DNA from: Candidatus Heimdallarchaeum aukensis
GTDB lineage: Archaea; Asgardarchaeota; Heimdallarchaeia; Heimdallarchaeales; Heimdallarchaeaceae
DNA: 64,000 nt
Direction: 5' to 3'
Assembly: GCA_021513695.1 (NCBI GenBank)
Contig: CP084166.1
Location: 2,720,001-2,784,000 of the forward strand
Within the stretch, counting starts at the first letter, position 1. Every line of letters starts with the position of its first letter. The position numbers and the translations under genes are program-made. Under the pieces are notes generated by a model. That model saw only the letters and a list, made by a program, of their open reading frames with translations, was not told where the DNA came from and made no database searches. Below are positions 6,921-55,351 of this stretch, in pieces.

Positions 6921-6928
6921 TTTATAAA
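6921..6928 (+). promoter_or_regulatory. candidate archaeal TATA box (tttataaa) upstream of tbp
   Basis: TATA-like octamer about 25 nt upstream of where a transcript for the 6977 start would begin. Motifs of this kind are ambiguous in AT-rich DNA. Confidence 0.25.
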
Positions 6929-6976
6929 GGCTATAAAGAAATCGACATGAATTTAAAAAAAAGGTGTTTAAAACCA

Positions 6977-21542: not shown

Positions 21543-21556
21543 TTTTTTCACCTTTA

Positions 21557-35464: not shown

Positions 35465-35625
35465 ATATTTAGTTTCAATATCTTCAATTTGAAAGATTTT
35501 TTCTATTTTTTCTTTTTATATACTCTTTTTTTGATATTTTTTGAATTATTTGTAAAATCTGCCTATCTCTTCACTGTAACCTTTTAGAGATATTGTTAAC
35601 CCTTCATATCGGAATATTTAAATTT

Positions 35626-36603: not shown

Positions 36604-36855
36604 AAATTAATCAAAATTTAAATATTCTTTTTTTTCTTTTCATTAATAATAATTAAAATGATTAACAGTGTATTTTTGAGTTGAAAAATTACTAAATATC
36701 TGATTATTTAACGTTTTTAACGATTATACATTTTTAGGTACGCTGCAGGTTCTTTTTCTCATTATCAATTAGAATCTCAAAATTTTTTTGTAATTATTAA
36801 GTTGATGAAATAGTTTAATAGAAAAAGGATTCGAATATACTATAAAAATTGATTT

Positions 36856-38163: not shown

Positions 38164-39039
38164 CTAATCTCTAAGTGAAAATTTGCAGTTAGTGTCTCCT
38201 TTTGCTCTACATTCTGTCTCGCTTACATTTATTTTAGGGTTGTTTAATGCACCCTCAATGAAACCTGTAAAAAAGTCGCACATTGGTTCATCTGATGAGT
38301 AACCTCTACATATTGGGCAGAGTTTCATTACAAATTGATTGTTTTTTTCATCGAAGTCTACTACTGAAATTTCGGATAGCAAATTATAAACATCTTTAGG
38401 GCTAATTACAAGTTTCTTTGAGTAATTTTTTTTAGCTAGCTTATAGCCAAAATATTTTCCAATAGATTCTAGCACATTTTTCTTTATATTTTCATCGTAC
38501 TTAGAATATAGTTCTCTTGCTAACTTTACTGTTCGTTCAGGATAATCATCTAGTAAACCCTTCTCCAGTTCTACTGATTCGAGTAATATAGTTAATGGTA
38601 AATTAGGATCAAAGATATTAAAAAATTCAGGGTTGGTTTGATAAAGATGATATAATTGGTCGTATAATTTTTGAGCCTTTACACCAAAAGTCTCAAAAAT
38701 AGATTTTTCAATATAAGTAATATCTTGGGTTTCAAAGAAATATGAAAAATCTTTCAAAAATTCAATTTCTATTTGCTTAACAAGAAATTGCCCCAACTTT
38801 ACATCTTCTTTTTCAAAGGCATGAACAACAAAAATCAATCCATGCTTTGATGAATAAATGAGGGTTCCATCTTCTGTTTGAATAGCGTAAAGGTTTGAAT
38901 GACCTAATTCTTTTAAGAATAGATCGATTGCACTAGAAACGCCAGCAAAAAGAATTTCATCAATATCTTGTTTTTTGTCAATTGAGAATTTGAATACTGG
39001 TAACCCTGTTAAATGAAAGATGTAAACAGCTTTAATCAT
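38164..39039 (-). CDS. longin-like N-terminal domain plus C-terminal V4R domain protein (TRAPP Bet3/Trs-like)
   Basis: The C-terminal CPICRGY...CDFFTGFIEGALNN...ETECRAKGDTNCKFSL matches the V4R consensus (C..C...G..xG....ETxCxAxGxxxCxF). The N-terminal ~120 aa (MIKAVYIFHLTGLPVFKFS...) have a roadblock/longin-like pattern. Confidence 0.5.
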   Translation of the reverse strand: MIKAVYIFHLTGLPVFKFSIDKKQDIDEILFAGVSSAIDLFLKELGHSNLYAIQTEDGTLIYSSKHGLIFVVHAFEKEDVKLGQFLVKQIEIEFLKDFSYFFETQDITYIEKSIFETFGVKAQKLYDQLYHLYQTNPEFFNIFDPNLPLTILLESVELEKGLLDDYPERTVKLARELYSKYDENIKKNVLESIGKYFGYKLAKKNYSKKLVISPKDVYNLLSEISVVDFDEKNNQFVMKLCPICRGYSSDEPMCDFFTGFIEGALNNPKINVSETECRAKGDTNCKFSLRD

Positions 39040-39097
39040 TGATAATCTACTTTTCTTATGCTGCTTTTTTACTTTTTGGTTTTTTTTGTTTGTTAAA

Positions 39098-39457
39098 TCA
39101 TTCTTCTCCTAGTAATCTTTTTGATAATTGATAAAATTGGAAAAACATAACCACTAGTAAAATAATTGCTATTACCATTAAACCTAATTTGGTTGGTTTC
39201 CAAATTTGGTCATAAAAGGATTTTGGGTTAAACCAGAAAAACTCATCATAAGCATTCATTAATGAACTGAGTGTTCCAAGTATTCCAAAACTTAATAGTG
39301 GATAGAAAATTTTCTTTTTTTCAAAAAGTGGAAAACGTTTTCTAAGTATAAATATTATAACTACTAAAAAAATAAAAGTAACAAATAGCAATACATCAAA
39401 AATTGCCTTCAAAATAGCTAAAATATTATCAGGCAAGTGAAGAATTACTGAAACCAT
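39098..39457 (-). CDS. small polytopic membrane protein
   Basis: Three predicted TM helices, with an ATG start one nt after the stop of the upstream ORF. Confidence 0.4.
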   Translation of the reverse strand: MVSVILHLPDNILAILKAIFDVLLFVTFIFLVVIIFILRKRFPLFEKKKIFYPLLSFGILGTLSSLMNAYDEFFWFNPKSFYDQIWKPTKLGLMVIAIILLVVMFFQFYQLSKRLLGEE

Positions 39458-39458
39458 T

Positions 39459-39788
39459 TCATAAACCCCATTGTTTTTTTCCTTCAGTAGAAGTTAACAG
39501 TAATCCAATTGCAATTAAAGCTATTGCAGTGAAAAAGAATAGTCCGTCAAAAAGATCGAACCAATCACTCAAATTTCCAAAATCAAATGTGTCAAAGATA
39601 TCGAACAAACTATGTAAAATCCCACAAAATAAACCAACTTGAATAACAATCCAACTCTTTGTGCGAGAAATTTTAGGATAGTTTTTACTTAATATTGAAG
39701 TCATAAAGAATGATGTTGAAAAACCTAAAAATGAAATTATTTCAAATATGAATAAATAAATGTCTGGAGCTTCAAATATTGCCATCAA
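39459..39788 (-). CDS. small polytopic membrane protein
   Basis: Hydrophobic ORF with ATG start. Its TGA stop is separated from the next ATG by one nt (TGAAATG). Confidence 0.4.
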   Translation of the reverse strand: MMAIFEAPDIYLFIFEIISFLGFSTSFFMTSILSKNYPKISRTKSWIVIQVGLFCGILHSLFDIFDTFDFGNLSDWFDLFDGLFFFTAIALIAIGLLLTSTEGKKQWGL

Positions 39789-40000: not shown

Positions 40001-40010
40001 ATTTAAATAT
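40001..40010 (+). promoter_or_regulatory. candidate TATA box (atttaaatat) for the nuo operon
   Basis: TATA-like decamer about 185 nt upstream of the nuoJ ATG, followed by an unusually GC-rich palindromic leader. Confidence 0.3.
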
Positions 40011-40036
40011 GCAACTGTAAAAATTACTCGTCGATT

Positions 40037-40110
40037 GTGTGCAGTTGTGTCATTAGTGCGCACAAAGTGCATAACCATGCACAGCGGTTCTAGATAGACA
40101 CTCTGTACAG
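40037..40110 (+). promoter_or_regulatory. GC-rich nested inverted repeats in the nuo leader (candidate operator or structured 5'-UTR)
   Basis: The outer imperfect inverted repeat is TGTGCAGTTGTGTC ... GACACTCTGTACA. Inside it are the palindrome GTGCGCAC and the perfect inverted repeat GTGCAT-aacc-ATGCAC. Local GC is far above the intergenic background. Confidence 0.4.
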
Positions 40111-40194
40111 ACAAAATAAGAATAATTGTGAATAGAATGATGAAAACGGAAAGAAATTCTGACTTCTTCTATAATTTATTTTTTGGTGATAACA

Positions 40195-40728
40195 ATGGTT
40201 AATGTTTATGCAATTGACTATATCATTATGGCTGTGCTTATTATAATAAGCGCAATAATGGCTCTAGAAGCAAGAGAAATAGTCTATGCAATTTTTTTCT
40301 TTGACCTGTTTACAATAGGCATTGGAGGAATGTTTCTTTTATTCAACGCTGGTTATGTGGCAATGTTTCAGTTGGCAGTCTATGCTGGTGCTGTGGCAGT
40401 AACAGTGTTGTTTGCAGTAATGCTTACAAGACGAACTGCGACAGGAAAAGAAATTATCTCTTTTGCATCAATACGAAATAAAATTGCAAGTCTTGTTTTA
40501 GCTCTCAGCATTGCAGCATTAATGCTTATTCTAGTTTCGAGATATGATTGGGCTACTCCTGCTGGTGATTATCCTGATCCATTAGGTGGTGGAGCGATAT
40601 TTACAAGTATAGTTACGAACTATGTTGTACCTTTTCTAGGAATTAGTCTAATTCTTGCTGCTTCTTTGGTAGGAAGCGTTGCATTGCTAAGAGAAGAGAG
40701 AAGTAAAAAGGAGGTTGCCAGTAAATGA
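40195..40728 (+). CDS. nuoJ: complex I subunit J (ND6-like)
   Basis: YAGAVAVTVLFAVMLT and the NuoJ TM pattern. The track start at 40183 is TTG; the likely start is ATG 40195, 5 nt after GGTGA. Confidence 0.8.
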   Translation: MVNVYAIDYIIMAVLIIISAIMALEAREIVYAIFFFDLFTIGIGGMFLLFNAGYVAMFQLAVYAGAVAVTVLFAVMLTRRTATGKEIISFASIRNKIASLVLALSIAALMLILVSRYDWATPAGDYPDPLGGGAIFTSIVTNYVVPFLGISLILAASLVGSVALLREERSKKEVASK

Positions 40729-41087
40729 CAGCAGTTCCAACAGAGTGGACAGTTTATTTGTCAGTAGTAATTTTGTCGATAGGTCTCTATGGTATTTTTA
40801 CTAGACGAAGTATGATACGCATTCTCCTTGGAGTAGAATTAATTTTAGGTGCAGCGACGCTGAATTTTATTGTATTTTCAATGTCTGTGCTAAATGGAGA
40901 TGTAGTAGGTCACATTCTGACCTTATTCGTTATAGCTCTAGCTGCAGCTGAAACAATTATCGGGTTAATCTTGCTTATTATGCTTTACAAAGATGTTGGC
41001 TCTATTGACATTTCTTTAGCAAGTGATGTAAAAGCGGAAGAGCAAGATGAAAATAAATTAACAAGAGGTGAAAAAGAAGATGGGTAA
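40725..41087 (+). CDS. nuoK: complex I subunit K (ND4L-like)
   Basis: LSIGLYGIFTRRSMIRILLGVELILGAATLNF is typical of NuoK. Its ATGA start overlaps the nuoJ stop. Confidence 0.85.
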   Translation: MTAVPTEWTVYLSVVILSIGLYGIFTRRSMIRILLGVELILGAATLNFIVFSMSVLNGDVVGHILTLFVIALAAAETIIGLILLIMLYKDVGSIDISLASDVKAEEQDENKLTRGEKEDG

Positions 41088-41580
41088 ATTTGCAGATTTT
41101 TTTAAGAAATGGGCTCGTAGTTCCTCTATTTGGCCCGTCAGATATTGTGTAGCCTGCTGTTCTACAGAAATGGCGGCAGCAATGGCTTCAAGATTTGATA
41201 TGGAACGTTATGGTGTGATGCCAGTTTGGGGACCTCGTCAAGCTGATTTTCTCATGATTGGTGGAATTGTTACTAAAAAAGCAGCAACAAGAATAAAAAC
41301 AATTTATGAGCAAATGCCTGAACCGAAGTATGTACTAGCTTTAGGTGCTTGTACAAGTGGTGGAGGACCTTATTATGATAGTTACAATGCAGTTCAAGAT
41401 GTAAGTGAGATTGTTCCTATTGATGTATATGTTCCTGGTTGCCCTCCTAGACCAGAAGCAATCCTAAGAGGAATTGAGATGATACAAGAAATGATTAAGA
41501 AAGGAATTAGAGCTGATGCTCCTCTACAAGTCGATGAAAAGACCAAATTGAAGGAGGTTCTAAAGTCATATGAACGTTGA
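41080..41580 (+). CDS. nuoB: complex I subunit B (PSST, N2 cluster)
   Basis: The CCSTEM, GACTSGGGPY and VPGCPP cysteine motifs. The track start at 41068 is GTG; the likely start is ATG 41080 after GAGGTGA. Confidence 0.9.
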   Translation: MGKFADFFKKWARSSSIWPVRYCVACCSTEMAAAMASRFDMERYGVMPVWGPRQADFLMIGGIVTKKAATRIKTIYEQMPEPKYVLALGACTSGGGPYYDSYNAVQDVSEIVPIDVYVPGCPPRPEAILRGIEMIQEMIKKGIRADAPLQVDEKTKLKEVLKSYER

Positions 41581-42040
41581 AGAGTTAAAAAAGAAGTTTC
41601 TAGACAATATAAAAACGGCTCAAGAAGAGAAAATTCAAGATAATCAGATTTTTATTAAAATCGACAAAGAGGATATCAAAACTGTTTCTAAATTTATCAA
41701 GGAGCAATTTGATGACGTAAATAAAATACTAGAGCAAGTTTTTGCTATAGATTTTCCTGATAGAAATGAAATGGAAATGATTTACACCTGGTGGTTTATC
41801 GAATATCATGCCTTAGTTCATTTTCGTGTAATCTTACCATATGATGATCTGAAAGTTGTATCTATTCAAGATGATTGGGTCGCTGCTAATTGGCATGAGC
41901 GAGAAACTTGGGAAATGTTTGGGATAGATTTTGAAGGACATCCAAACTTAAAGCAATTTTTGCTCTCAGACGAACTTTTCGGTAAACATCCTATGAGGAA
42001 ATCTTTCAAAATTGAGCATAATCCGGAGGAAGCAAAATGA
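41570..42040 (+). CDS. nuoC: complex I subunit C (30 kDa)
   Basis: NuoC-like length and conserved WHERETWEMFGIDFEGHPNL block. AGGAGGT upstream. Confidence 0.8.
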   Translation: MNVEELKKKFLDNIKTAQEEKIQDNQIFIKIDKEDIKTVSKFIKEQFDDVNKILEQVFAIDFPDRNEMEMIYTWWFIEYHALVHFRVILPYDDLKVVSIQDDWVAANWHERETWEMFGIDFEGHPNLKQFLLSDELFGKHPMRKSFKIEHNPEEAK

Positions 42041-43152
42041 CAGAAAATAAAGAAAGAAGTTCAAGTTTAGTTTCTTTTAGCTATGGTCCTCAACATCCTG
42101 GAACACATCCTTATTCCTTACTTTTAACTGTTGATGGAGATCGAATAGAAAAAGTAGAAGCACAGATTGGTTATGTTCATAGAGGATTAGCTAAACAAGC
42201 TGAATCAAGAACATTTATCCAAGCTTTACCAATAATGGAAAGATCTTGTTTCATTGATTCAGTTAACCATCAATTTGGTTATGTCATGGCAGTGGAAAAA
42301 TTAGCCGGTATAGAAGTACCAGAAAGAGCAGAATACCTTAGAGTTATTGCTGCTGAATTATCACGCATGAACTCTTTGATAAGCTGGTTTGGTGGTTACG
42401 CAGCTGAAACTGGAATTAACTCAGCTTTCATGTGGGCTTGGAAAGATAGAGAAATGTTTCTTGACCTATTTGGCCATCTTGCAGGAAGCAGAGTTTCTGT
42501 AATGTACTTAACTATCGGAGGAGTTAGGTGGGATTGGAATGATAAGCTAACCAATTTAACTTGGGAAATTATTGATTATATGGAAGAGAGACTAAAAATA
42601 CACAAAAAGCTGGTTATGAAGAATTCAATATTCAAAAAACGAACTAAAGGTGTAGGAGTCGTTTCAAAAGAGAAAGCACTAGAATATGCATTTACAGGGC
42701 CTAACTTAAGAGCTTCAGGAGTACAAGGCGATATTAGAATTTTAGAACCCTATAGTGTTTATGATCATTTCAAATTTACTCCTAAAGTAATGACTGAGGG
42801 AGATAACTGGGCTAGAACCATGATTCGTCTACACGATATTGAAACTAGTATGGAGATTCTAAAACAAGCTCTTCCAGAGATTCCCGAAGGAGAATACAAG
42901 ACTAAAGTTCCTCTAAAATTAAGAGCTAATGCTGGCGAGGCATATGCAAGAGTAGAGTTGTCTAGAGGAGTCATGGGTTATTATATTAGAACAGTGGAGG
43001 ACAAATCAACAAAACCCTATAGAGTTAAAATAAGAGGACCTTCATTCTCACACTTCCAAATTGTAGAAGATATTCTAGTTGGAACACATATGGCTGATAT
43101 TCCAATAATCAAAGGTTCTCTAGATGTATGTCCAGCAGATTTAGATAGATAA
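42037..43152 (+). CDS. nuoD: complex I subunit D (49 kDa), no NiFe-binding cysteines
   Basis: SFSYGPQHPGTHPYSLLLTVDGDRI and the RGxEK-like core. The N- and C-termini lack the RxCGxC and DPCxxC motifs of hydrogenase large subunits. Confidence 0.85.
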   Translation: MTENKERSSSLVSFSYGPQHPGTHPYSLLLTVDGDRIEKVEAQIGYVHRGLAKQAESRTFIQALPIMERSCFIDSVNHQFGYVMAVEKLAGIEVPERAEYLRVIAAELSRMNSLISWFGGYAAETGINSAFMWAWKDREMFLDLFGHLAGSRVSVMYLTIGGVRWDWNDKLTNLTWEIIDYMEERLKIHKKLVMKNSIFKKRTKGVGVVSKEKALEYAFTGPNLRASGVQGDIRILEPYSVYDHFKFTPKVMTEGDNWARTMIRLHDIETSMEILKQALPEIPEGEYKTKVPLKLRANAGEAYARVELSRGVMGYYIRTVEDKSTKPYRVKIRGPSFSHFQIVEDILVGTHMADIPIIKGSLDVCPADLDR

Positions 43153-43165
43153 GAAGGTGAAAGTA

Positions 43166-44140
43166 ATGAATACAGATTTTCTATTTATAAAAGTCGCAGT
43201 ATTTCCTGGTGTCCTTTTCGTACTATTTGGATGTCTTTATTTGATGTATTTCGAAAGGAAAACAATAGCGAGAATTCATGGAAGAATAGGGCCACAATAT
43301 GTAGGCTATGGAGGTTTGTTACAAACAATAGCTGATCTAATGAAATTAATGTTTAAGGAATGGATATTCCCAAAAACAGCAAAGAAAGCAGCTCTATTTC
43401 TAACCCCTATTGCTCTATTTCTACTTGCTTTTCTACCCCTATCGGTTGTTCCATGGGGAGAAAATTGGTATGTAGCAGATTTCAGTGTTACATTGATCTT
43501 TGCATTTGTGGTTATAGCTGCTATTCCTTTCTTAAGCCTTCTACTTGGTTGGTCCTCAGGAAGTAAATATTCTTTGATAGGCGGATACAGAGCTGCATCA
43601 CAACAAATTGTGTTTGAGGTTCCTTTATTTCTTTCTGCATTAACTCCTGCTATACTTGCAAATAGTTTGAGTTTAATGGATATTACAAAAAATCAGAAAA
43701 TATGGTTCCTTGTACTGAATCCAATCGCTGCTTTCGTCTTTTTCGTTTCTATGCTTGCAATGATGGAAAGACAACCTTTTGATATTCCTGAAGCAGAATC
43801 CGAATTAGTATTTGGTTGGAAAACAGAGTTAAGTGGTATTTTCTTTGGTTGGTCAATATTCGCTGGTTACACTATTATGATCGGAGGAAGTGCTCTATTT
43901 GTTGTTTTATTCATGGGTGGTTTTAACGGGCCAGGAAATAATTTAGGTGTCCTATGGTTTATGCTCAAACTAGCTTTGATATGGCTTATTCTTTTCGCTA
44001 TGAGAGCAGTTTTACCAAGATATAGAATGGATCAGATACTAAGAATGTCTTGGAGGTTGATGATACCACTTTCTTTGGTCAGTATTGGCTTATCAATCGG
44101 GTTACTATTTGCATTCCCCAATTTCTTCAGAGGTGTATAA
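43166..44140 (+). CDS. nuoH: complex I subunit H (ND1-like)
   Basis: The ERKTIARIHGRIGPQYVGYGGLLQTIADLMKL region and eight TM helices. The track start at 43157 is GTG; the likely start is ATG 43166 after AAGGTGA. Confidence 0.85.
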   Translation: MNTDFLFIKVAVFPGVLFVLFGCLYLMYFERKTIARIHGRIGPQYVGYGGLLQTIADLMKLMFKEWIFPKTAKKAALFLTPIALFLLAFLPLSVVPWGENWYVADFSVTLIFAFVVIAAIPFLSLLLGWSSGSKYSLIGGYRAASQQIVFEVPLFLSALTPAILANSLSLMDITKNQKIWFLVLNPIAAFVFFVSMLAMMERQPFDIPEAESELVFGWKTELSGIFFGWSIFAGYTIMIGGSALFVVLFMGGFNGPGNNLGVLWFMLKLALIWLILFAMRAVLPRYRMDQILRMSWRLMIPLSLVSIGLSIGLLFAFPNFFRGV

Positions 44141-44183
44141 TTTGGCAGATAAAAACTTTCTAACTAACATAAGATCGTTATAC

Positions 44184-44627
44184 ATGGCTATTGCACAGAT
44201 GTTCAAGAAACCATTCACAACAAAGTATCACACAACAAACAAAGAAAGAATAGTGGAATACGACAGATTGCGTGGAGAACTTATAATGAACTTACCCAAA
44301 TGTGTGGGTTGTACACTATGTGTTCAAGCTTGTCCTAATGCTGCATTGAAAATGGTTTCATATGACAATGGAAATCCAAGAAACAAAAAGAAACATGTTC
44401 CTTCTTTTAATTTAGGACTCTGCAGTTTTTGCGCTTTATGTGTAGAAGCTTGTCCTTATGATGTCCTAGAAATGGGTAAAGTGTACGATAGAGCCTATGC
44501 CACTATGGAAGATATGCTTCGTTCTCCTGAGGAGATGTATGAGGATTGGATTGAACAGAAAGGAGAAGAAGATGAAATAGATCCTGAAGAAATTGAAACT
44601 GACAAAATCGATATCGAGGAGGATTAA
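44184..44627 (+). CDS. nuoI: complex I subunit I (2x[4Fe-4S] ferredoxin-type)
   Basis: CVGCTLCVQACP and CSFCALCVEACP. The track start at 44085 overlaps nuoH; ATG 44184 avoids the overlap. An acidic C-terminal tail. Confidence 0.8.
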   Translation: MAIAQMFKKPFTTKYHTTNKERIVEYDRLRGELIMNLPKCVGCTLCVQACPNAALKMVSYDNGNPRNKKKHVPSFNLGLCSFCALCVEACPYDVLEMGKVYDRAYATMEDMLRSPEEMYEDWIEQKGEEDEIDPEEIETDKIDIEED

Positions 44628-44628
44628 A

Positions 44629-46086
44629 ATGGTTGTTAGTACAGTTTTGTTATTAATTTCTATAATAGCTCCTTTAGTTATAGGATTCTTATTATTCATT
44701 CCATTCCTTCAAAAATATGCAGGGTGGATAACAGCTGGAGTATCTACTGTCGTTTTAGCCTTCTTAATTACTGCTTCTGTTCCAATATGGAACAGTTCTG
44801 TAACAAAAGTGGAACTCCAATGGGCTCCAGCAGCTGGTCTGTTAATGGGATTCTTGTTGGACAATCTATCAGCACTTATTGCATTATTGATAGCAGTTGT
44901 TTCTACCTTAACAGCTTTCTATTCCATAAAATATATGGAGCATGAAGAGAGAAAAGGATTATACTTTAGCTTATACAACTTCTTCTTTGCAGGTATGCTC
45001 GGAGTAGTTCTATCTACAAACCTCCTAGAGTTTTTCTTCTTCTGGGAACTTATGCTAATTCCTAGTTACTTAATGATTGTTTATTGGGGTACTAAAGCTA
45101 AAGCAGCAAAAGTTGCATTGAAGTATTTCTTCTATACTCAAGTGGGTTCTATTGGAATAATTGTTAGTTTTGCAATTATTGCCTTTTATGGTAACAGTTT
45201 AAACATTGCAGAAATTGCAACTAATCTCTCAATATCTTCACTTCCAAATGCTATACTCTACTTAACCTTTATACTACTGATGATAGGTTTAGCTGTAAAA
45301 CTCGCTATCTTTCCTTTCCAAAATTGGTTACCTGATGCTCACGGAGAAGCTCCAACACCAATAAGTGTATTGCTCTCTGCAGTTATGATCGAAACAGCAG
45401 CTTATGCAATAGTTCGTATTGCTATGCAATTTTATGGAGAGATTTTCGAAACATCTAGGATTGTCTTTGAGAGTGTAGGAGTATTTACCCTCTTGTATGG
45501 AGGCTTCTTAGCTTTAAGGCAAACAGATGTTAAAAGACTACTCGCTTATTCTTCTGTAAGCCAAATGGGTTATGTCTTTATTGGTTTATCAACATACAAC
45601 CAATTTGGTGTTTCAGGAGGATTATTCCACATATTAGCTCATGGATTTGGAAAAGGGATACTCTTCATGACTGCAGGAATTCTCATACATGAAGTGAAAA
45701 CTAGAGATATTACTGCAATGGGTGGATTAGGTAGAAAAATGCCTTTCACTGCTATAATTTCATTTATTGCAGCATTAAATCTCGCTGGAACACCCCCACT
45801 AAGTGGATTCTTCAGTGAATGGTTTATCTTTAGTGGCGCATTCTATCAAGCAACAACAGAGTTTGTAATTCTAGGTATTTTTCTATTACTAGGTTCAATA
45901 TTAAGCGCAGCTTATATGCTACGTTTTCTGTGGAAAGTGTTCCTTGGTCCTTTACCAGGAGAACTAGAAAAGACAAAAGAAACAAAGCTATTACTTTGGG
46001 TTCCAGGAGCGATTTTAGCACTATTGGCTATATTCTTCGGTATCTTTGCTAATGTTGCAATTGAACTTTTCAGTACAGTGATTTGA
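44629..46086 (+). CDS. additional antiporter-like subunit, NuoM/ND4-like (or MrpD-like)
   Basis: WLPDAHGEAPTPISVLLSAVMIETAAYAIVRI is a NuoM-type motif. The ATG at 44629 directly follows the nuoI stop, and GAGGAGGA lies upstream. Confidence 0.75.
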   Translation: MVVSTVLLLISIIAPLVIGFLLFIPFLQKYAGWITAGVSTVVLAFLITASVPIWNSSVTKVELQWAPAAGLLMGFLLDNLSALIALLIAVVSTLTAFYSIKYMEHEERKGLYFSLYNFFFAGMLGVVLSTNLLEFFFFWELMLIPSYLMIVYWGTKAKAAKVALKYFFYTQVGSIGIIVSFAIIAFYGNSLNIAEIATNLSISSLPNAILYLTFILLMIGLAVKLAIFPFQNWLPDAHGEAPTPISVLLSAVMIETAAYAIVRIAMQFYGEIFETSRIVFESVGVFTLLYGGFLALRQTDVKRLLAYSSVSQMGYVFIGLSTYNQFGVSGGLFHILAHGFGKGILFMTAGILIHEVKTRDITAMGGLGRKMPFTAIISFIAALNLAGTPPLSGFFSEWFIFSGAFYQATTEFVILGIFLLLGSILSAAYMLRFLWKVFLGPLPGELEKTKETKLLLWVPGAILALLAIFFGIFANVAIELFSTVI

Positions 46087-46095
46087 GGTGAAAAA

Positions 46096-48126
46096 ATGGA
46101 AGCTATAATAATTACAGTATTACTAACAGTTTTGGTTCCTCTTGTAGGAAGCTTGATAAGTCCATTATTAAATAAAATATTGAAAGAGAAAATACACTTT
46201 TATGCTATAGCCATAGCAGTTATAACTGCTGCACTTGGAATAACTTCTTTTTCAATTGGTTTAAGAATGGAGGAAATAGAGCCTTGGACATTCAATTGGA
46301 TTAAAGATCTATTAAATCCTGGAGAGTTTATACAAGGAGGAATTTTTCTAGATAAATTCTCGTTACTTATGCTAATGCTTGTTTCAGTAATAGCCATGTT
46401 GATTGTAATCTTTAGCCATGATTATATGCACGGTGATGATGCTTTACCAAGATATTATTTCTGGATACTATTCTTTATTGGCAGTATGCTAGGGCTAATA
46501 GTATCAGACAACTTGATTCAGTTGTTTATATTCTGGGAAGGTGTAGGATTAGCCAGTTATGGACTAATTGGTTTCTGGAACAGAGAAAATGAAAATGTGA
46601 AGAGTGGTACAAAAGCTTTTCTTGTTACAAGAGCTGGAGATATGGGTTTACTTGCTGCGATAATATTGATTTACTTTAATGTAGGAACACTAAGTTTCTC
46701 TGAATTCACCTCTGATTTTGGAAATATTTTAGGTGAAAGTAAATTAATAGTGTTAGTAGGAGTCTTAATACTCGTTGGAATTGCAGGTAAATCTGCTCAG
46801 TTTCCTTTGCAGTTCTGGTTACCGGAAGCTATGGCAGGTCCTTCAACCGTATCGGCTCTCATCCATGCAGCAACAATGGTTAAAGCTGGTATTTATCTCG
46901 GAGGAAGATTCTTACCTTATTTCTTAACCGCAGCGCCTTTATATGCTGAGCAATTAGAAGTTCTCTTCTTAATAATTGCAGCTGTTGGAGTATTCACAGC
47001 TTTTCTTGCAGCATCTATAGGCATGGCAGCGAGAGAATTCAAAAAAATACTGGCTTTTTCAACTATTTCGCAATTAGGATACATGTTGCTTGCAATTGGT
47101 GTTGCTGGTCTGCTTCATAATGGAGAAGATGCTCTATTTGCTTCTATCTTCCACATGACCTCCCATATGTTCTTCAAAGCATTACTCTTCCTTGGTGCAG
47201 GAGCTATCTTACATTCTGTAACAACTACGAAGGATATCTTTGAAATGGGAGGACTGAGAAAATATATGCCTAAAACAACATTGTTGTTCAGTGCAGGAGC
47301 ATTATCTTTAGCTGGAATACCTCCTTTTGCAGGTTTCTTCTCCAAAGAGACAATATTTTCAAAAATTATTGAGTATATTGAAGAAACTTCATCAGTATGG
47401 GGGTGGATATTCCTGTCATTAGCAGTAATTGCAGCGATAATGACATTATTTTACACGATGCGAATGATAGGTGTAGTTTTCTTTGGAGAAAGTGGAGAAC
47501 ATGTAAAAGAAGCTGAAAAACATGGACATCTTCATGATCCTAGTTGGTTTATGATGGGCCCTTTACTAGTTTTAGCAATAGGATCAACAATATGGGGATT
47601 CTTTGGCGGATTAATAGAACATTGGTTTTATCACGGAGATCAAACCTATGGAGAATGGATAGGCCATATCTTCAGAAATGGATGGGGATGGTTAATATTA
47701 GCTATAATTGTAATTGTTGGTGGAATACCAGGATACCTAATTTACTTTAGAAAAGTAAACAATACTTTCTTTGCCAACTCGTTCTTACAGAAGTTTCTGT
47801 ATAATCGTTGGTATTGGAATTCCTTAATGTTAACTGTTTTCGTTGACGGAACAACAAAAGTTGGAGATCTGCTTCAATATCCAGAAAAAGCACTTGATCA
47901 TGGAACAAACTCCCTTGCAAGTGGAGTTCTTGCTACTGCTAATGCTTTCGAAGTTCTTGATCGCAAAATAGTTGACGGTGCAGTAAACAAAATAGCTTAT
48001 GGTTTCCAATGGATGGGGATGAAACTTCGAAGATTCGAAACAGGCTTCATATCTCAATACCTGTGGATAGGAGCATTTGGTTTTGTTATTCTATTAATTG
48101 GAGTAACACTTGCTATTATATTGTGA
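46096..48126 (+). CDS. nuoL: complex I subunit L (ND5-like, with long C-terminal extension)
   Basis: WLPEAMAGPSTVSALIHAATMVKAGIYL, 676 aa with the C-terminal region typical of NuoL. GAGGTGAAAAAATG start context. Confidence 0.85.
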   Translation: MEAIIITVLLTVLVPLVGSLISPLLNKILKEKIHFYAIAIAVITAALGITSFSIGLRMEEIEPWTFNWIKDLLNPGEFIQGGIFLDKFSLLMLMLVSVIAMLIVIFSHDYMHGDDALPRYYFWILFFIGSMLGLIVSDNLIQLFIFWEGVGLASYGLIGFWNRENENVKSGTKAFLVTRAGDMGLLAAIILIYFNVGTLSFSEFTSDFGNILGESKLIVLVGVLILVGIAGKSAQFPLQFWLPEAMAGPSTVSALIHAATMVKAGIYLGGRFLPYFLTAAPLYAEQLEVLFLIIAAVGVFTAFLAASIGMAAREFKKILAFSTISQLGYMLLAIGVAGLLHNGEDALFASIFHMTSHMFFKALLFLGAGAILHSVTTTKDIFEMGGLRKYMPKTTLLFSAGALSLAGIPPFAGFFSKETIFSKIIEYIEETSSVWGWIFLSLAVIAAIMTLFYTMRMIGVVFFGESGEHVKEAEKHGHLHDPSWFMMGPLLVLAIGSTIWGFFGGLIEHWFYHGDQTYGEWIGHIFRNGWGWLILAIIVIVGGIPGYLIYFRKVNNTFFANSFLQKFLYNRWYWNSLMLTVFVDGTTKVGDLLQYPEKALDHGTNSLASGVLATANAFEVLDRKIVDGAVNKIAYGFQWMGMKLRRFETGFISQYLWIGAFGFVILLIGVTLAIIL

Positions 48127-48135
48127 GGTGAAAAA

Positions 48136-49605
48136 ATGATAGGAATATTAACTACTTTAATAACTGTTCCCCTTATAGGAGCAATAATTGTGTTCTTGAT
48201 TGGAACAAAAAATAAAAAACTTTCAAGACTTTTAGCTCAATTTATAACATTTGCTGAGTTATCAATCTCTTGGAGTTTATTCGCTTTCTATGATAGAATT
48301 AATAAAAGGCTCAATATTGAGGATGAATTTGTACGATGGATAGATTCTTTTTCTATTCATTTTTCGCTCAGCATTGATGGAATAAGCTTTGTGCTAGTAC
48401 TACTCTCAACTACCATCGTATTTCTAGTTGCTCTCCAATCTACATTCGTAATAGAAGAAAATGAACATTTATACTATACTTTGCTTTTACTATTTGAGAC
48501 AGGAATTTTAGGAGTCTTCTTGGCTTCAAACTTAATAATATTCTACATTTTCTGGGAATTAGTTTTAGTTCCAATGTTCTTTCTTATAGGTGAATGGGGT
48601 GGAGAAAGAAAACGTTATGCTGCAGTCAAGTTCTTCATATTTACACATGTAGGAAGCTTGTTTATGCTACTAAGTTTTCTGTATCTATTCATTAACATGA
48701 AAACATTTAGTATTATAGAGTTAAGTCAAAAGGATATACCTGAAATTGTTCAAACCATTGCAGCAATCGGTATCTTCCTTGGAGTGGCAGTAAAACTACC
48801 CGCTGTTCCAATACATTCATGGTTACCTGATGCACATGTAGAAGCTCCAAGTCCAGTAAGTGTATTACTCGCAGGTCTATTGCTAAAAATGGCAGGATAT
48901 GGTTTTCTTAAACTAGGATTGAATATTGTCCCAGAAGGAATAAAAGTCCTGCGTCCTGTTCTTATAACCTTAGGTGTAGTTGGAGCTTTTTATGCTGCTT
49001 TTGCTGCTATAGCACAAAAGGATCTCAAGAGAGTTATTGCTTTTACTTCAATTAATCACATGAGTTTTATCATGATCGCAGTAGCAGTTGCAACACCCCT
49101 TGCAATTATTGGAGCAGTATTTCAAATGATAAGCCATGGAATAATCATAGGGCTAATGTTCTTCCTCTCTGGTATAATACAACACCATGTAGGAACCAGA
49201 GAAATAAACTTACTTGGAGGAATAAAAAAGAAACCTGTTTTAACTGGTTTCTTAATTGTTGGCTCTATAGCTGCATTTGGCGCTCCTCCAATGAGTGGAT
49301 TCATTGCAGAAATGATGATATTCTTTGCTTCGATTCCAGTATATCCTTGGGTAATGACTGTGGCTGCTTTCTCAATCGTAATAACCTCTGTTATTTACCT
49401 TTGGTTACTAACTAGAGTACTATTTACTAATAAAGCAGAAGAAGTAGTTTTTGAGGACCTAGTATCTCATCAGAACTACTTAAAATATGAATTATCAATA
49501 GTTGGTCTCTTATTTATACCTATATTCGTTCTTGGATTCTTTCCAAATTTGTTAGTATCAATTATTGAACAAGCTGTGAACCAGCTTCTTAAAATAATAG
49601 GGTGA
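48136..49605 (+). CDS. nuoM: complex I subunit M (ND4-like)
   Basis: WLPDAHVEAPSPVSVLLAGLLLKMAGYGFLK. GAGGTGAAAAAATG start context. Confidence 0.85.
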   Translation: MIGILTTLITVPLIGAIIVFLIGTKNKKLSRLLAQFITFAELSISWSLFAFYDRINKRLNIEDEFVRWIDSFSIHFSLSIDGISFVLVLLSTTIVFLVALQSTFVIEENEHLYYTLLLLFETGILGVFLASNLIIFYIFWELVLVPMFFLIGEWGGERKRYAAVKFFIFTHVGSLFMLLSFLYLFINMKTFSIIELSQKDIPEIVQTIAAIGIFLGVAVKLPAVPIHSWLPDAHVEAPSPVSVLLAGLLLKMAGYGFLKLGLNIVPEGIKVLRPVLITLGVVGAFYAAFAAIAQKDLKRVIAFTSINHMSFIMIAVAVATPLAIIGAVFQMISHGIIIGLMFFLSGIIQHHVGTREINLLGGIKKKPVLTGFLIVGSIAAFGAPPMSGFIAEMMIFFASIPVYPWVMTVAAFSIVITSVIYLWLLTRVLFTNKAEEVVFEDLVSHQNYLKYELSIVGLLFIPIFVLGFFPNLLVSIIEQAVNQLLKIIG

Positions 49606-49610
49606 AAAAA

Positions 49611-51041
49611 ATGGAAGTAATTATTTATCCTTTAATCGCACTCCTTGTTGGTATTGTGTTAAGTTTAATAACTGGAACACTAAAAAAAGGAGATGTTGCA
49701 CGTACAATAAGTATCTTAAGCCTTATAACAGCGATATCTTTGCTTGCGGTTTTCTATCCTTTCAACGGTCAAAGACTATTCAGTGACACAATTGTTCTAG
49801 ATAATTTTGGAGGATTTTTTGTTTTTCTATTCTTATCTCTCGCTGTATTTATTCTACTTGGAAGCACAAAAGTGTTGGATGAACATCCTGAAATGCCGGC
49901 ACTTTTACTTCTTTCTACAATTGGGATGGCTTTAATCGGAATTACTGATAACTTAGTGATGATCTTTGTAGCTTGGGAATTAATGAGTTTGACAACATAC
50001 GTATTAGCAGGTCTTGGAAAAAGAGAACAATCAACAGAAGCGGCCATGAAATACTACATTTATGGAAGTGTTTCTTCTGCCCTTATTCTATTCTCTATTA
50101 GCTTGATATACGGTATAACTGGCTCTATGCAATTGTCCATAATAGCTACTGTTGCATCTTCACTAGACACAACGGCAATAGGTGTTCTGCTTTTATCTGC
50201 AACAATATTCATCTTTGGTTTTGGATATAAAGTAGGAATAGTTCCATTCCATCTTTGGTTACCAGATGTGTATGAAGGAAGCCCCGCTCCAGTAAGTGGG
50301 CTTCTAGCAGGTGTATCAAAGAAAGTAGCTATTGTCGCAACAGCTAGAATCTTTTTGACTGGATTTGAGAGTGTAGACTTTAATTGGAAAATCCTTTACG
50401 CAATTATAGCTGTAATAACTATGACTGTTGCTAATATTGCTGCTTTATCTCAAAGAAAAGTTGTAAGAATGTTTGCATATAGCTCGATCTCTCAAATAGG
50501 ATACATGATTGTCGGATTTGCTATATTTTCTCCTGAAGGATTGGCAGCAACGATGATGCAACTAACTGTTCATGCAGTTACAACCGTTGGAGCCTTTATC
50601 ACAATAGGTATTATAGCAAAGAAACTAGATCTCAGGACATATGATGACTATAAAGGTTTAGGAGCTAGAAAACCTGTGTTAGGACTAGGTTTGACAATAA
50701 TGATGTTGTCTTTAGCTGGCATTCCTCCTCTTGCAGGATTTGTCAGTAAATTGTTCTTGTTTACTGAAGCAGTAAGAGCTAATTTACTGTGGTTAGCAAT
50801 CGTTTTAGTTTTGAACAGCGTTTTATCGCTTGGTTACTATCTCCCTCTCATAAGAAACATGTATCTTGAGAAACCAGAGAAAACAACAGAAGGCGAAGAA
50901 ACGAAAAAAGAAAAATTCGACACTAGGACTATAGGTCCTATAATGGTCAATATTATGACTACATTAGCTATTGTAATTATACCAATCTTTGCACAAAAGA
51001 TTTTCGACATAATCACTGAAGCAGCTAAAAATGTAATATAG
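49611..51041 (+). CDS. nuoN: complex I subunit N (ND2-like)
   Basis: FHLWLPDVYEGSPAPVSGLLAG. The track start at 49602 is GTG overlapping the nuoM stop; the likely start is ATG 49611 (MEVIIYP...). Confidence 0.85.
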   Translation: MEVIIYPLIALLVGIVLSLITGTLKKGDVARTISILSLITAISLLAVFYPFNGQRLFSDTIVLDNFGGFFVFLFLSLAVFILLGSTKVLDEHPEMPALLLLSTIGMALIGITDNLVMIFVAWELMSLTTYVLAGLGKREQSTEAAMKYYIYGSVSSALILFSISLIYGITGSMQLSIIATVASSLDTTAIGVLLLSATIFIFGFGYKVGIVPFHLWLPDVYEGSPAPVSGLLAGVSKKVAIVATARIFLTGFESVDFNWKILYAIIAVITMTVANIAALSQRKVVRMFAYSSISQIGYMIVGFAIFSPEGLAATMMQLTVHAVTTVGAFITIGIIAKKLDLRTYDDYKGLGARKPVLGLGLTIMMLSLAGIPPLAGFVSKLFLFTEAVRANLLWLAIVLVLNSVLSLGYYLPLIRNMYLEKPEKTTEGEETKKEKFDTRTIGPIMVNIMTTLAIVIIPIFAQKIFDIITEAAKNVI

Positions 51042-51054
51042 AGGTGAAAAAAAG

Positions 51055-51432
51055 ATGATGTTATTTGATGCAATAATTCCAGTACTCGCATTGGGCCTAG
51101 CAGGTATGATTTTCGTAGGTATAATGATGACTTTATCAGTCTTGACTAAACCTAAAGGAGAAAAAACAAAGCTAAAGTTACAAACCTATGAAAGTGGAGA
51201 AGTTCCAGTAACTGACCGTTTAGGATTCCAATTTAATTATCAATACTTTGTTTATGCTATAGTTTTCACTGCTTTGGACGTTATGTCTATTTTCTTATAT
51301 GCGTGGGCTGTTGATTCTGCCCGTTTAGAAACAAACACCTTACTAACGATACTTGGCTTTATCACAATTTTATTCTTGGGCTTTGTTTATGTATCTGTAG
51401 CAACAAGAGAGTGGAAGAAAAATATAATGTAA
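51055..51432 (+). CDS. nuoA: complex I subunit A (ND3-like)
   Basis: YESGEVPVTDRLGFQFNYQYFVYAIVFTALDVMSIFLYAWAV is the NuoA signature. GAGGTGAAAAAAAGATG start context. Confidence 0.85.
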   Translation: MMLFDAIIPVLALGLAGMIFVGIMMTLSVLTKPKGEKTKLKLQTYESGEVPVTDRLGFQFNYQYFVYAIVFTALDVMSIFLYAWAVDSARLETNTLLTILGFITILFLGFVYVSVATREWKKNIM

Positions 51433-51555: not shown

Positions 51556-52218
51556 ATGAAAAAAGATTTGTATTTAACAGAGGAAAATCGAAAAGAAAAA
51601 TCTGTTCAATGGTTAAAAGAATGTAGAAAATACAAAAAAACTAATCCTTTTAACTTTAATTTGAAAACCGCTGCTTTAGTTGTTTTAGATATGCAAAAGG
51701 TTTTTCTCGAAAAAGATTCACACGCTTTTATTCCTTCAGGGGTTACTATTATACCGATCATTAATAAAATAGTAACAAAATTCAACGAATACAAACGTCC
51801 AATTATCTTTTCTAGACATATTTTTCCAGAGAGCAAAGAGTCTCTTTTGTACAAAATTTGGAGAAATTCTATAGATCTTAACCAAGAAGAGTCAGAACTA
51901 GTTGAAGAAATAAAAAGTGGAGGAATTATTCTAATAAAAAGGAATTATAGCGCATTTAGGAAAACTAACCTAGAAACAATTTTAAGAAAAAACAAAGTCA
52001 AACAACTAGTTGTAACAGGGTTAATGAGCCATCTTTGTTGTGATACAACAACAAGGGATGCTTTTATGTTGGGATATGAACCATTTTTTGTTGTTGATGC
52101 TACAGCTACCTATAATGAAACTTTACATTTAGGAACACTAAGAGCGCTTTCTCATGGATTTTCAGTACCTATTGTTTCGGAGGAGATAATTAATTGGAAA
52201 GAAAATCCAAAAATGTAG
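51556..52218 (+). CDS. isochorismatase-family cysteine hydrolase
   Basis: AALVVLDMQKVF (Asp), the Lys region and VVTGLMSHLCCDTTTRDA (catalytic Cys). Confidence 0.75.
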   Translation: MKKDLYLTEENRKEKSVQWLKECRKYKKTNPFNFNLKTAALVVLDMQKVFLEKDSHAFIPSGVTIIPIINKIVTKFNEYKRPIIFSRHIFPESKESLLYKIWRNSIDLNQEESELVEEIKSGGIILIKRNYSAFRKTNLETILRKNKVKQLVVTGLMSHLCCDTTTRDAFMLGYEPFFVVDATATYNETLHLGTLRALSHGFSVPIVSEEIINWKENPKM

Positions 52219-53093
52219 ACATATTACTAGTTGGTGGAGGGCCTGCTTGTTGTTCTGCCGCAATTCAATTAGTAAGAAGTAAAAAAAACATTTTACTGAT
52301 TACTAAAGAAATAGGCGGTTTAGTTAAAAATGCCAACTTAATAGAAAATTTATTGGGTTTTCCTAATGGAATTAGAGGAAAAGATTATGCTTCATTGATG
52401 CAAGAACAATTAAAGAAAATCAAAGTACCAGTGCTTATAGATGAAGTAAAAAAAGTAGAGAAAGTAGAAGAGCATTTCGTTATAACAACTTCAAATAAGA
52501 AATTTACTGCAAATTATGTTATTATTGGTTCTGGAACTATTCCTAAAAAACTAGAAATTTCAGGAGAGGAGAAGGCATATCAAGATAAAAAATTATTTTA
52601 TGAAGTCTATGAAGCAAAAGAATTTCTAGAAAAGAAAGATGATGTAATTATAATTGGAGGAGGAGATGCAGCTTATGATTATGCTTTAAACATATCGAAT
52701 CAAGTTAAACAAATTAGAATTTTGCAAAGATCAGAAAATGCAAAATGTTTGCCTTTATTATTAAAACGAGTTAAAAAAAAGGAAAATATACAAATTATAA
52801 AAAATGTAACTCCTTCAGAGATTAGTTTTTATTCAAACAAATTATTATTAACTGTTAGAAAATCAACAAATAATTTTCTAGACTTATTGACTGATAAAAT
52901 TTTGATAGCAGTAGGTAGAACACCTAACATTTCTTTTATTGAAGAAGGTTTATTAACATCTGAAAACTTACAAAGCACAGACCGAAGATTAATCCTAATC
53001 GGCGACATTAAAAATAAACGACTTAGACAAATTTCAATTGCAATTGGAGATGGTCTTAAAGAAGCAATGAAAATAATTGAAGAGAATGAGTGA
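52194..53093 (+). CDS. FAD/NAD(P)-binding pyridine-nucleotide-disulfide oxidoreductase family protein (thioredoxin-reductase-like, no obvious CxxC)
   Basis: Two Rossmann dinucleotide motifs: VDILLVGGGPACCSAA and VIIIGGGDAAYDYA. It overlaps the upstream gene by 25 nt. Confidence 0.65.
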   Translation: MERKSKNVDILLVGGGPACCSAAIQLVRSKKNILLITKEIGGLVKNANLIENLLGFPNGIRGKDYASLMQEQLKKIKVPVLIDEVKKVEKVEEHFVITTSNKKFTANYVIIGSGTIPKKLEISGEEKAYQDKKLFYEVYEAKEFLEKKDDVIIIGGGDAAYDYALNISNQVKQIRILQRSENAKCLPLLLKRVKKKENIQIIKNVTPSEISFYSNKLLLTVRKSTNNFLDLLTDKILIAVGRTPNISFIEEGLLTSENLQSTDRRLILIGDIKNKRLRQISIAIGDGLKEAMKIIEENE

Positions 53094-55199: not shown

Positions 55200-55351
55200 A
55201 AAATCACTCTCGTCCTCTAGATCCTCAAAGAAAAGCACTTGGTTATAAAATTAATTCTAAAACGAAAAAGAAAAGAAACATTTTACTGTTTTACCCCAGC
55301 TTAACTCATATTTAAGGTGCTGCTTTTTTCTTAAAAAAATGAGCTGAAAAT

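Follow-up and report, generated by a model that had tools for sequence, protein, structure and literature searches.

Complex I homologs with an extra NuoM-like subunit (2M complex I) have been described from archaea and bacteria. In Nitrososphaerales, heterotrophic marine Thaumarchaeota and Angelarchaeales the 2M enzyme is devoid of NuoEFG and possibly driven by ferredoxin (PMC7300363, PMC9038741); both papers cite Chadwick et al. 2018 for it. Bacterial 2M complex I is known from Nitrospira and Chloroflexi, and these enzymes, as well as the five-pump Complex_I_3 of Manganitrophus, combine an extra pump with about 26 residues inserted into the lateral helix (HL) of NuoL or MrpD2 (PMC9040806, PMC7117926). 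For Heimdallarchaeia, a preprint describes the complex-I-like enzymes as probable hydrogenases with shortened arms (Appler et al., bioRxiv 10.1101/2024.07.04.601786). Here we analyzed a stretch of 64,000 nucleotides from Candidatus Heimdallarchaeum aukensis (contig CP084166.1, positions 2,720,001 to 2,784,000 of the forward strand), hereafter the window. At positions 40195-51432 of its plus strand, 12 co-directional, densely packed open reading frames (ORFs) were identified with Pfam and NCBIfam as NuoJ-K-B-C-D-H-I-M'-L-M-N-A, where M' is a fourth antiporter-like subunit. We consider it rather probable that this locus encodes a 12-subunit complex I homolog of the 2M type without NuoEFG, which would pass electrons from ferredoxin to a menaquinone-type acceptor and translocate about 5 H+ per two electrons.

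The sequence provides for this enzyme a Q-module (B, C, D and I), an anchor with E-channel (H, A, J and K), four antiporter-like subunits and an extended HL. Pfam E-values for the 12 ORFs ranged from 1e-20 to 1e-90 (families Oxidored_q3, Oxidored_q2, Oxidored_q6, Complex1_30kDa, Complex1_49kDa, NADHdh, 2x[4Fe-4S] Fer4, Proton_antipo_M for four ORFs, and Oxidored_q4), the NCBIfam subunit names agreed, and all 11 subunits of the complex I core (NuoA, B, C, D, H, I, J, K, L, M and N) were found. Both the gene order with its extra gene at 44629-46086 and the complete core with a fourth antiporter-like subunit had been proposed in an initial annotation of the window, and were confirmed by these matches. 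NuoI contains both ferredoxin motifs (two copies of CxxCxxCxxxCP), giving three [4Fe-4S]-binding motifs across NuoI and NuoB. The membrane side is orthodox as judged from alignments with the E. coli subunits: the TM5-6 loop of NuoH ('PFDIPEAESELVFGW'; TM, transmembrane helix) and other motifs common to E. coli NuoH, the 'YESGE' loop of NuoA, both membrane Glu residues of NuoK, and the charged key residues of L, M and N are all conserved. The two hallmarks of the 2M type were observed, an extra NuoM-like gene inside the nuo operon and a NuoL lateral-helix insertion of about 26 residues (26-30 residues more, depending on the reference). With its M'-L-M-N block and no NuoEFG, the arrangement is that of archaeal 2M complex I as published before; the initial annotation had not recognized it as such.

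The likeness to archaeal 2M complex I includes the position of the M-like gene directly upstream of nuoL and the lack of NuoEFG, and, for the thaumarchaeal enzymes, an HL segment of 78-80 residues and a NuoD without Tyr87. Differences were found in the permuted gene order of the window (JK first, A last), in NuoD, which keeps two NiFe Cys together with the exact His38 position, in the C-x-x-C-C motif of NuoB, in the TM8 residue of M' (Glu, not Gly or Lys), and in the placement of NuoD outside the clade of TACK and canonical sequences. The extra subunit of bacterial 2M enzymes is described as a NuoM duplicate in the order L-M1-M2-N, whereas M' of the window is a separate archaeal lineage located before L; to our knowledge bacterial 2M enzymes also carry NuoEFG, and the window enzyme differs from them in this respect. 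The Fpo-like complex of Methanothrix and cyanobacterial NDH-1 share the 11-subunit core without an NADH module, and ferredoxin is their proposed or shown donor; they have three antiporter-like subunits in place of four, and the window proteins stay below the Fpo-specific models. No ferredoxin-docking subunit of the NdhS/V/O type was identified for the window operon. The NuoEFG-less 2M architecture is known, while for Heimdall-, Thor-, Loki- and Asgardarchaeia genomes no description of it was found in the literature searched, where a link between NuoM and Asgard archaea came up in incidental mentions only. The additions specific to this clade are a half-degenerate NiFe pocket, the C-x-x-C-C NuoB, the TM8 Glu of M' and the permuted operon.

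M' shares 33.7, 31.5 and 30.0% identity with NuoM, NuoL and NuoN, respectively, of the same operon. Its key residues are E140 (TM5), K224 (TM7), E255 (TM8), H338 (TM11) and E397 (TM12), among which E140, K224 and E397 do not vary across 62 homologs. The Glu in TM12 is a hallmark of NuoM, the corresponding residue being Lys in L, N, MrpA and MrpD. The center of TM8 is occupied by Glu, as in the Asgard members and in 29 of the 62 homologs, against Lys in NuoM, NuoN and MrpD. An AlphaFold2 (AF2) model of M' (mean predicted local distance difference test, pLDDT, 93.6) has TM7 and TM12 as broken helices, as is typical of the antiporter-like family. In structural comparison with Foldseek, including the comparison with MrpD suggested in the initial annotation, MrpA-N, NuoM, NdhD and MrpD all gave template-modeling scores of about 0.9; the fold cannot discriminate among them because these scores are equal. 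In neighbor-joining (NJ) trees (465 columns, 200 bootstraps) the Asgard M' proteins formed a clade with 100% bootstrap, which grouped, without bootstrap support, with M-like subunits of Bathyarchaeota, Lokiarchaeota and Thermoprotei and with the extra subunit of one thaumarchaeal operon. The larger group of M'-type subunits plus canonical NuoM received 80-81% support, and the NuoM and NuoN of the window fell in the canonical NuoM and NuoN clades (98-100% each). A recent tandem duplication of nuoM was rejected as the origin of M' on the 33.7% identity to NuoM, the separate clade and the homologs across Archaea; the view of the initial annotation that the extra gene is no near-identical nuoM copy therefore holds. 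Recruitment from MrpA or MrpD was likewise rejected, as MrpA joins NuoL and MrpD stands elsewhere in the tree, and as M' has the NuoM-type Glu in TM12. From these sequence comparisons, M' is a member of an old archaeal M-like family.

The extension of NuoL bears on whether M' is built into the membrane arm. About 26-27 extra residues were found in the HL of the window protein relative to M. smegmatis NuoL and T. thermophilus Nqo12, and an alignment gap of about 28-30 residues relative to E. coli NuoL was located at the same HL position in all four Asgard proteins. From anchor to anchor the HL segment measures 78 residues in the window NuoL and 50 in E. coli. The AF2 model of NuoL (pLDDT 84) places helices at 572-625 and 631-645 after TM15, followed by TM16 at 652-675. 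The lateral-helix insertion of the Nitrospira 2M NuoL has the same size and position (PMC9040806). Among the best 120 NuoL homologs (P0241-P0360), the segment between the two conserved anchors fell into discrete length classes: 26 residues in three sequences, 51-54 in 77, 78-82 in 32, 107-109 in seven, and 135 in one. Each step between classes amounts to a tandem repeat of roughly 27 residues that can be recognized in the sequences; four such repeats stand in P0289, and P0309 carries an exact recent duplication. When the genomic contexts of about 66 operons were combined, the HL segment was 26 residues in a two-pump hydrogenase operon, 50-55 residues in 46 of 51 three-pump operons, and 78-80 residues in 13 of 14 four-pump operons. 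Since HL of the window NuoL is extended by about 27 residues and HL length tracks the number of pump genes, we concluded that M' would be an integral fourth module of the membrane arm, inserted between NuoL and the TM16 anchor. The classes of 107-135 residues, for which the available operon contexts (L012, L013 and L016) are truncated or dispersed, may mark five- or six-pump archaeal complexes.

The gene order was compared with that of relatives found by exact-protein look-ups and by a survey of M', in which genomes, one per species, were scanned with an M' alignment and the ORFs of the resulting 80 loci were classified by BLAST against a reference set. Two metagenome-assembled genomes (MAGs), one from Asgardarchaeia (L004) and another (L005), carry J-K-B-C-D-H-I-M'-L-M-N with nuoA divergent upstream. 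The Thorarchaeota order is A-J-K-C-D-H-I-M'-L-M-N, with nuoA first (L007). In the Thor operons (L007, L022-L028) nuoB is detached, at a distance of at least a few hundred bases upstream of nuoA; it was found shortly upstream in four of the five Thor-type survey loci (L022, L023, L024 and L027), and was not found in L007 and L028. NuoD of the same operons has 'C-M' at the Asp86/Tyr87 site and no C-terminal Cys, and their NuoK has His for the second membrane Glu. The canonical order with the same insertion, A-B-C-D-H-I-J-K-M'-L-M-N, was observed in a thaumarchaeon (L018). By the survey, the M'-L-M-N block is present in Thaumarchaeota, Bathyarchaeia, Thorarchaeota and one Promethearchaeota MAG (L096), and Nitrosopumilaceae (L048-L093) carry A-B-C-D-H-I-J-K-M'-L-N, where M' is the sole M-type subunit. 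The JK-first start is common to the Asgard relatives, and its combination with a final nuoA is specific to this species. JK-first order also occurs in the unrelated rhizobial 'green' complex I, as the S. meliloti pSymA operon begins with nuoJ-K; the two MrpD-like subunits of that complex each pair with a different subunit of a haloarchaeal plasmid Mrp operon at 99-100% bootstrap (comparison L010/L011).

At the substrate site the enzyme departs from canonical complex I. NuoD 'ERSCFIDSVNH' aligns with hydrogenase 'ERICGICSxxH', and its C-terminal 'DVCPADLDR' with 'DPCxxCxDR'; in each CxxC pair the first Cys is kept and the second is Asp, so that two of the four NiFe Cys remain. The statement in the initial annotation that NuoD lacks the NiFe cysteines thus held as to the enzyme not being a [NiFe] hydrogenase, and failed as to the loss of all four. 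Also absent from NuoD is the Glu of the hydrogenase 'KEP' motif. The equivalent of His38 is retained ('GPQHPGTHP'), and Asp139 was aligned by eye to Glu. Canonical 'D-Y' at the Asp86/Tyr87 site was found in 90 of the 120 best NuoD homologs; among these best matches, only the ten nearest clusters at 90% identity, from Heimdallarchaeaceae, Asgardarchaeia and one other lineage, combine 'C-F' with the C-terminal Cys. NuoB carries the four canonical N2 Cys noted in the initial annotation and a fifth that it had not mentioned ('YCVACCSTEM', 'GACTSGG', 'GCPPRP'). In the C-x-x-C-C motif, the tandem CC of complex I is joined by a Cys three residues upstream, with the spacing of hydrogenase and of the membrane-bound reductase of sulfane sulfur (MBS) in a short-loop form; the motif is kept in L004 and L005, and absent from the E. 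coli, ammonia-oxidizing archaeal and hydrogenase homologs. The retained Cys pair of NuoD and the extra Cys of NuoB are best read as relics of a hydrogenase- or MBS-like ancestor, with no working metal site. The Q-site preserves a step in the transition from hydrogenase through MBS to complex I.

The enzyme is proposed to work as follows. Reduced ferredoxin from peptide and aldehyde fermentation would dock on the NuoI side, and its electrons would travel by way of the NuoI and NuoB clusters, three [4Fe-4S] in all, to an acceptor soluble in the membrane. This acceptor, most probably a quinone of the menaquinone type, would bind close to the conserved His in the NuoD/NuoB/NuoH pocket, and the redox energy would drive the translocation of about 5 instead of 4 H+ per two electrons. 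The span from ferredoxin (about -450 to -500 mV) to menaquinone (about -75 mV) is about 0.4 V, which is enough for about 4-5 H+ per two electrons; we know of no 2M enzyme for which five H+ per two electrons has been measured. Because the energetics fit only a large redox span, polysulfide is disfavored as the acceptor. Ferredoxin is the probable donor, on account of the absent N-module, the 11-subunit analogues and the ferredoxin-producing catabolism encoded in the same window, where an aldehyde:ferredoxin oxidoreductase stands beside an iron-containing alcohol dehydrogenase and where peptidases and an Opp transporter are encoded. The oxidoreductase, which together with the adjoining alcohol dehydrogenase lies within 20361-23935 (minus strand), is 792 residues long and extends about 170 residues beyond the coverage of the AFOR domains.

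Several observations weigh against a ferredoxin:menaquinone oxidoreductase with five-proton stoichiometry. In NuoD, Phe takes the place of Tyr87 (T. thermophilus Nqo4) and is preceded by Cys instead of Asp, and Tyr87 is the ligand and proton donor of the quinone head group in all characterized complex I. In a small NJ analysis rooted on true hydrogenases, the NuoD clade of the window (93% support; 72% with Thor) stood outside the clade of canonical and TACK NuoD (90%), beside MbsL. Neither a quinone biosynthesis gene nor a quinol oxidase was seen in the window. On the donor side, the assignment of ferredoxin is entirely by inference, and the C-terminal tail of NuoI is strongly acidic, with no obvious docking surface for an acidic ferredoxin. 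As to the pumps, the ion stoichiometry or specificity of M' may differ because Lys of TM8 is replaced by Glu, and the relation between HL length and pump number has exceptions in L013 (HL 107, three genes in the cluster), L017 (HL 81, three dispersed genes), L096 (HL 107, four genes) and three survey loci. Taken alone, a missing Tyr87 does not speak against quinone reduction, since all Nitrosopumilaceae NuoD in the survey also depart there, with 'LERPVIHD' at the Tyr87 site; in the NuoD of these marine ammonia oxidizers the His is also shifted by one position ('GSGHM'). With the MbsL-type Cys pattern of NuoD and Phe at Tyr87, the electron acceptor is open to inference only, and the designation 'true quinone or methanophenazine reductase' given in the initial annotation is not supported as written.

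These features raise an alternative, which we regard as unlikely, that the acceptor is not a quinone and that the complex, having acquired a full complex-I arm, reduces sulfane sulfur (polysulfide) with ferredoxin in the manner of MBS/Mbx, or reduces another hydrophobic substrate. The best match of NuoD among solved structures was MbsL of P. furiosus MBS (Mbx, PDB 6U8Y; chain 6u8y_L, 262 bits in one continuous alignment, against 225 for Nqo4), with the same C-x-x-[D/E] and D-x-C-P-x-D-x-D-R pattern, that is, acidic residues at the two lost Cys positions. MbsL keeps exactly the same two Cys, C85 and C385, and lacks both His38 and Tyr87 (Yu et al. 2020, PMC7684303). The C-x-x-C spacing of NuoB, though in short-loop form, and the proximity of NuoD to MbsL in the NJ tree point in the same direction, and the organism stems from sulfidic hydrothermal sediment. 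On the other hand, NuoD retains His38, and MBS is further distinguished by a three-Cys proximal cluster, to which its catalysis is attributed, and by attachment of the peripheral module from the opposite side (PMC7684303), whereas the tandem CC of NuoB should give four-Cys ligation. The MBS arm is of the Mrp type, with two antiporter-like subunits and MbsA-C; the window arm has the complex-I-type architecture of NuoA, J, K and H genes with a long-HL NuoL, and no homolog of MrpE/F/G/B (MbsA-C) was detected in the operon by Pfam. In addition, ammonia-oxidizing archaea, which are also without Tyr87 in NuoD, are generally assumed to be quinone reducers. Electron transfer from ferredoxin to polysulfide spans only about 0.2 V, too little for five translocation modules. 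We consider it quite unlikely, too, that the complex is a living intermediate between MBS/Mbx and complex I, in which a full arm with a fourth pump is joined to a pocket still binding a non-quinone substrate or a residual metal.

The ferredoxin:menaquinone reading assumes that electrons flow downhill. In the reverse mode the proton-motive force, at five H+ per two electrons, would push electrons from quinol up to ferredoxin. An uphill role has been proposed for the 2M and five-pump complexes of Nitrospira and Manganitrophus (PMC9040806), uphill transfer being favored because an extra pump raises the H+/e- ratio; the lack of an NADH module likewise makes ferredoxin the probable low-potential partner. 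The catabolism encoded in the window, however, with aldehyde:ferredoxin oxidoreductase and peptide uptake, reduces ferredoxin and so calls for its re-oxidation, not its reduction, and no quinol-generating lithotrophic module is visible there. We therefore judge predominantly reverse operation distinctly unlikely.

A donor other than ferredoxin would call for an input module. The Pfam scan of the window covered ORFs of at least 100 residues, apart from nine that overlap larger ORFs and ORF 55758-56129; among the ORFs scanned no NuoE/F/G or FrhB/FpoF domain was detected, in agreement with the initial annotation, which had reported no NuoEFG or FpoF nearby. No E, F or G was present among the called genes within 10 kb of L004, L005, L007, L018 and the 80 survey loci, for which no dedicated search was made. 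Assignment to the Fpo type was rejected, every Fpo-specific NCBIfam model being far below its cut-off (score/cut-off: FpoD 315/600, FpoH 224/475, FpoL 313/1050, FpoK 79/145, FpoC 100/220, FpoI 77/180), and F420, one of two donors considered in the initial annotation, was dropped with it. It might still be supposed that the complex oxidizes NADH or F420H2 and that the genes for its NuoEFG or FpoF stand at another place of the 3.08-Mb genome, as such modules are sometimes unlinked. NuoEFG homologs are indeed reported in Asgard genomes, but as separate complexes not associated with other Nuo subunits (Appler et al., bioRxiv 10.1101/2024.07.04.601786); with this and with the Fpo scores, we hold an unlinked input module to be very unlikely.

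An H2-evolving group-4 [NiFe] hydrogenase of complex-I-like shape is extremely improbable and was rejected on the NuoD and NuoB motifs, in line with the initial annotation, which had set the complex apart from Mbh/Ech hydrogenases: although Heimdallarchaeia NuoD has been called an apparently active [NiFe] hydrogenase (Appler et al., bioRxiv 10.1101/2024.07.04.601786) and NuoD gave a weak match to the N-terminal part of Pfam NiFeSe_Hases (23.8 bits, below cut-off), Asp replaces both bridging Cys ('RSCFIDSVNH', 'DVCPADLDR'), the 'KEP' Glu is missing, NuoB has the short CC-type loop ('CVACC') without the long CxxC loop of true hydrogenase operons, and the arm of four antiporter-like subunits is not shortened. 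The true hydrogenase operons of comparable genomes (L013, L014, L019 and others) carry the full RICGICSxxH, DPCxxC and GGCNGCDIE, the references L013 and L014 reading 'ERICGICSAAH' ... 'DPCLACMDR' with NuoB-type 'GGCNGCDIE'. The Asgard group-4 [NiFe] hydrogenase complexes, from the same phylum, do share related subunits with the window operon (NuoL, M'-type, J and K; L014, L015, L019, L031 and L032), but in them four NiFe Cys are present, NuoJ is split (MbhD/E-like), the antiporter-like subunits number two or three, and HL measures 26-55 residues; the window operon shows none of these features. The window operon is a different enzyme from the Heimdallarchaeia hydrogenase complexes of Appler et al. 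Both types occur in one Asgardarchaeia genome (GCA_052584985.1), which encodes a group-4 [NiFe] hydrogenase (L014; two antiporter-like subunits, HL 26 residues) and a four-pump non-hydrogenase complex of the window type (L004).

The individual genes are listed in Table 1. For nuoI the start is probably TTG 44142, not ATG 44184, since a GAGGTG box precedes it and the N-terminal segment of homologs is thereby restored; with this start, intergenic distances across the cluster range from -11 to +13 nt. GGTGA precedes seven of the 12 genes and GGAGG or AGGTG the others, the boxes lying 5-12 nt upstream. Overlaps were observed between J and K and between C and D (ATGA), between K and B (8 nt) and between B and C (11 nt). 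The cluster therefore looks translationally coupled, as the initial annotation had suggested, while its claim of a GGTGA box before nearly every gene was too wide and the ATGA overlaps are limited to J/K and C/D. Over 40001-48000, the GC content of the operon is 0.36 against 0.27-0.31 in the flanks, with positive GC skew.

Table 1. Genes of the complex-I-like operon and their main family matches (positions in the window)
Gene	Position	Strand	Description
nuoJ	40195..40728	+	177 residues; Pfam Oxidored_q3, 7e-21; GGTGA 5 nt upstream; stop overlaps nuoK start (ATGA)
nuoK	40725..41087	+	120 residues; Pfam Oxidored_q2, 2e-20; both membrane Glu kept ('GVELILG', 'AAAETIIG')
nuoB	41080..41580	+	166 residues; NCBIfam NuoB 202 bits (cut-off 116); carrier of the proximal N2-type [4Fe-4S] cluster
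nuoC	41570..42040	+	156 residues; Pfam Complex1_30kDa, 3e-28
nuoD	42037..43152	+	371 residues; NCBIfam NuoD 380 bits (cut-off 360); substrate-site subunit with half-degenerate NiFe motif
nuoH	43166..44140	+	324 residues; Pfam NADHdh, 1.5e-90
nuoI	44142..44627	+	161 residues from TTG 44142 (147 from ATG 44184); NCBIfam NuoI family matches
M'	44629..46086	+	485 residues; Pfam Proton_antipo_N and Proton_antipo_M; TIGR01972 NDH_I_M 309 bits (cut-off 264)
nuoL	46096..48126	+	676 residues; NCBIfam NDH_I_L 484 bits; extended lateral helix HL
nuoM	48136..49605	+	489 residues; canonical; TIGR01972 480 bits; key residues E/K/K/H/E
nuoN	49611..51041	+	476 residues; TIGR01770 347 bits (cut-off 333)
nuoA	51055..51432	+	125 residues; Pfam Oxidored_q4, 1e-20; TM1-2 loop 'YESGE' kept; displaced to the operon end

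Directly after nuoA, overlapping genes at 51556-54045 (plus strand) encode an isochorismatase-family hydrolase, a thioredoxin-reductase (TrxR)-like flavoprotein and a radical-SAM protein. The flavoprotein is devoid of the CxxC redox motif and is possibly a TrxR-type ferredoxin:NADP reductase. These genes were not counted as an input module, as they are not conserved beside the operon in L004, L005, L007 and L018. At 38164-39788 (minus strand), in divergent orientation to nuoJ, genes for two small proteins of 109 and 119 residues, predicted to be membrane proteins, are followed by one for a 291-residue protein with a C-terminal V4R domain, and the same three genes were found in contigs with identical NuoD (L001). 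The small membrane proteins (39098-39788, minus strand) gave no family matches and were seen only in the contigs with identical NuoD, and were not counted as parts of the complex. Two sulfotransferase genes (373 and 391 residues) flank the region on the minus strand at 35593-37977 and 54063-55238, with a gene of the TauE/SafE sulfite-exporter family upstream. Elsewhere on the minus strand are a 980-residue ORF without a Pfam match at E <= 1e-5 (24079-27021), a 319-residue protein whose C-terminal domain is a 2x[4Fe-4S] ferredoxin and whose N-terminal part lacks annotation (31223-32182), and a 992-residue protein combining a response-regulator receiver domain with a PEP/pyruvate-dikinase nucleotide-binding domain (59087-62065). 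Eukaryote-like proteins typical of Asgard archaea are encoded at 6881-7552, 10864-11844, 17452-19464 and 32376-33038; the set comprises a TBP, a small GTPase of the Arf family extended at its C terminus by about 150 residues, a 670-residue HEAT-repeat protein and a homolog of GPP34 (Golgi phosphoprotein 3).

Asgard bioenergetics is relevant to models of eukaryogenesis, and the closed genome of Heimdallarchaeum offers a non-hydrogenase enzyme with an enlarged four-pump arm, as opposed to the H2-evolving hydrogenases with shortened arms of the preprint. The HL repeat of about 27 residues provides a simple ruler for pump modules, readable from sequence, which flags candidate five- and six-pump archaeal enzymes. 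The same four-pump design is present in Thor-, Loki- and Asgardarchaeia genomes, which implies a strong pressure to draw as much proton-motive force as possible from low-potential ferredoxin. With the two remaining NiFe Cys and the C-x-x-C-C of NuoB, the succession of steps by which complex I evolved can be put to the test. If the enzyme were in fact an intermediate between MBS and complex I, quinone chemistry would have arisen after the complex-I architecture, and the respiratory enzyme used by archaea closely related to the eukaryotic host lineage would be one of unknown chemistry.

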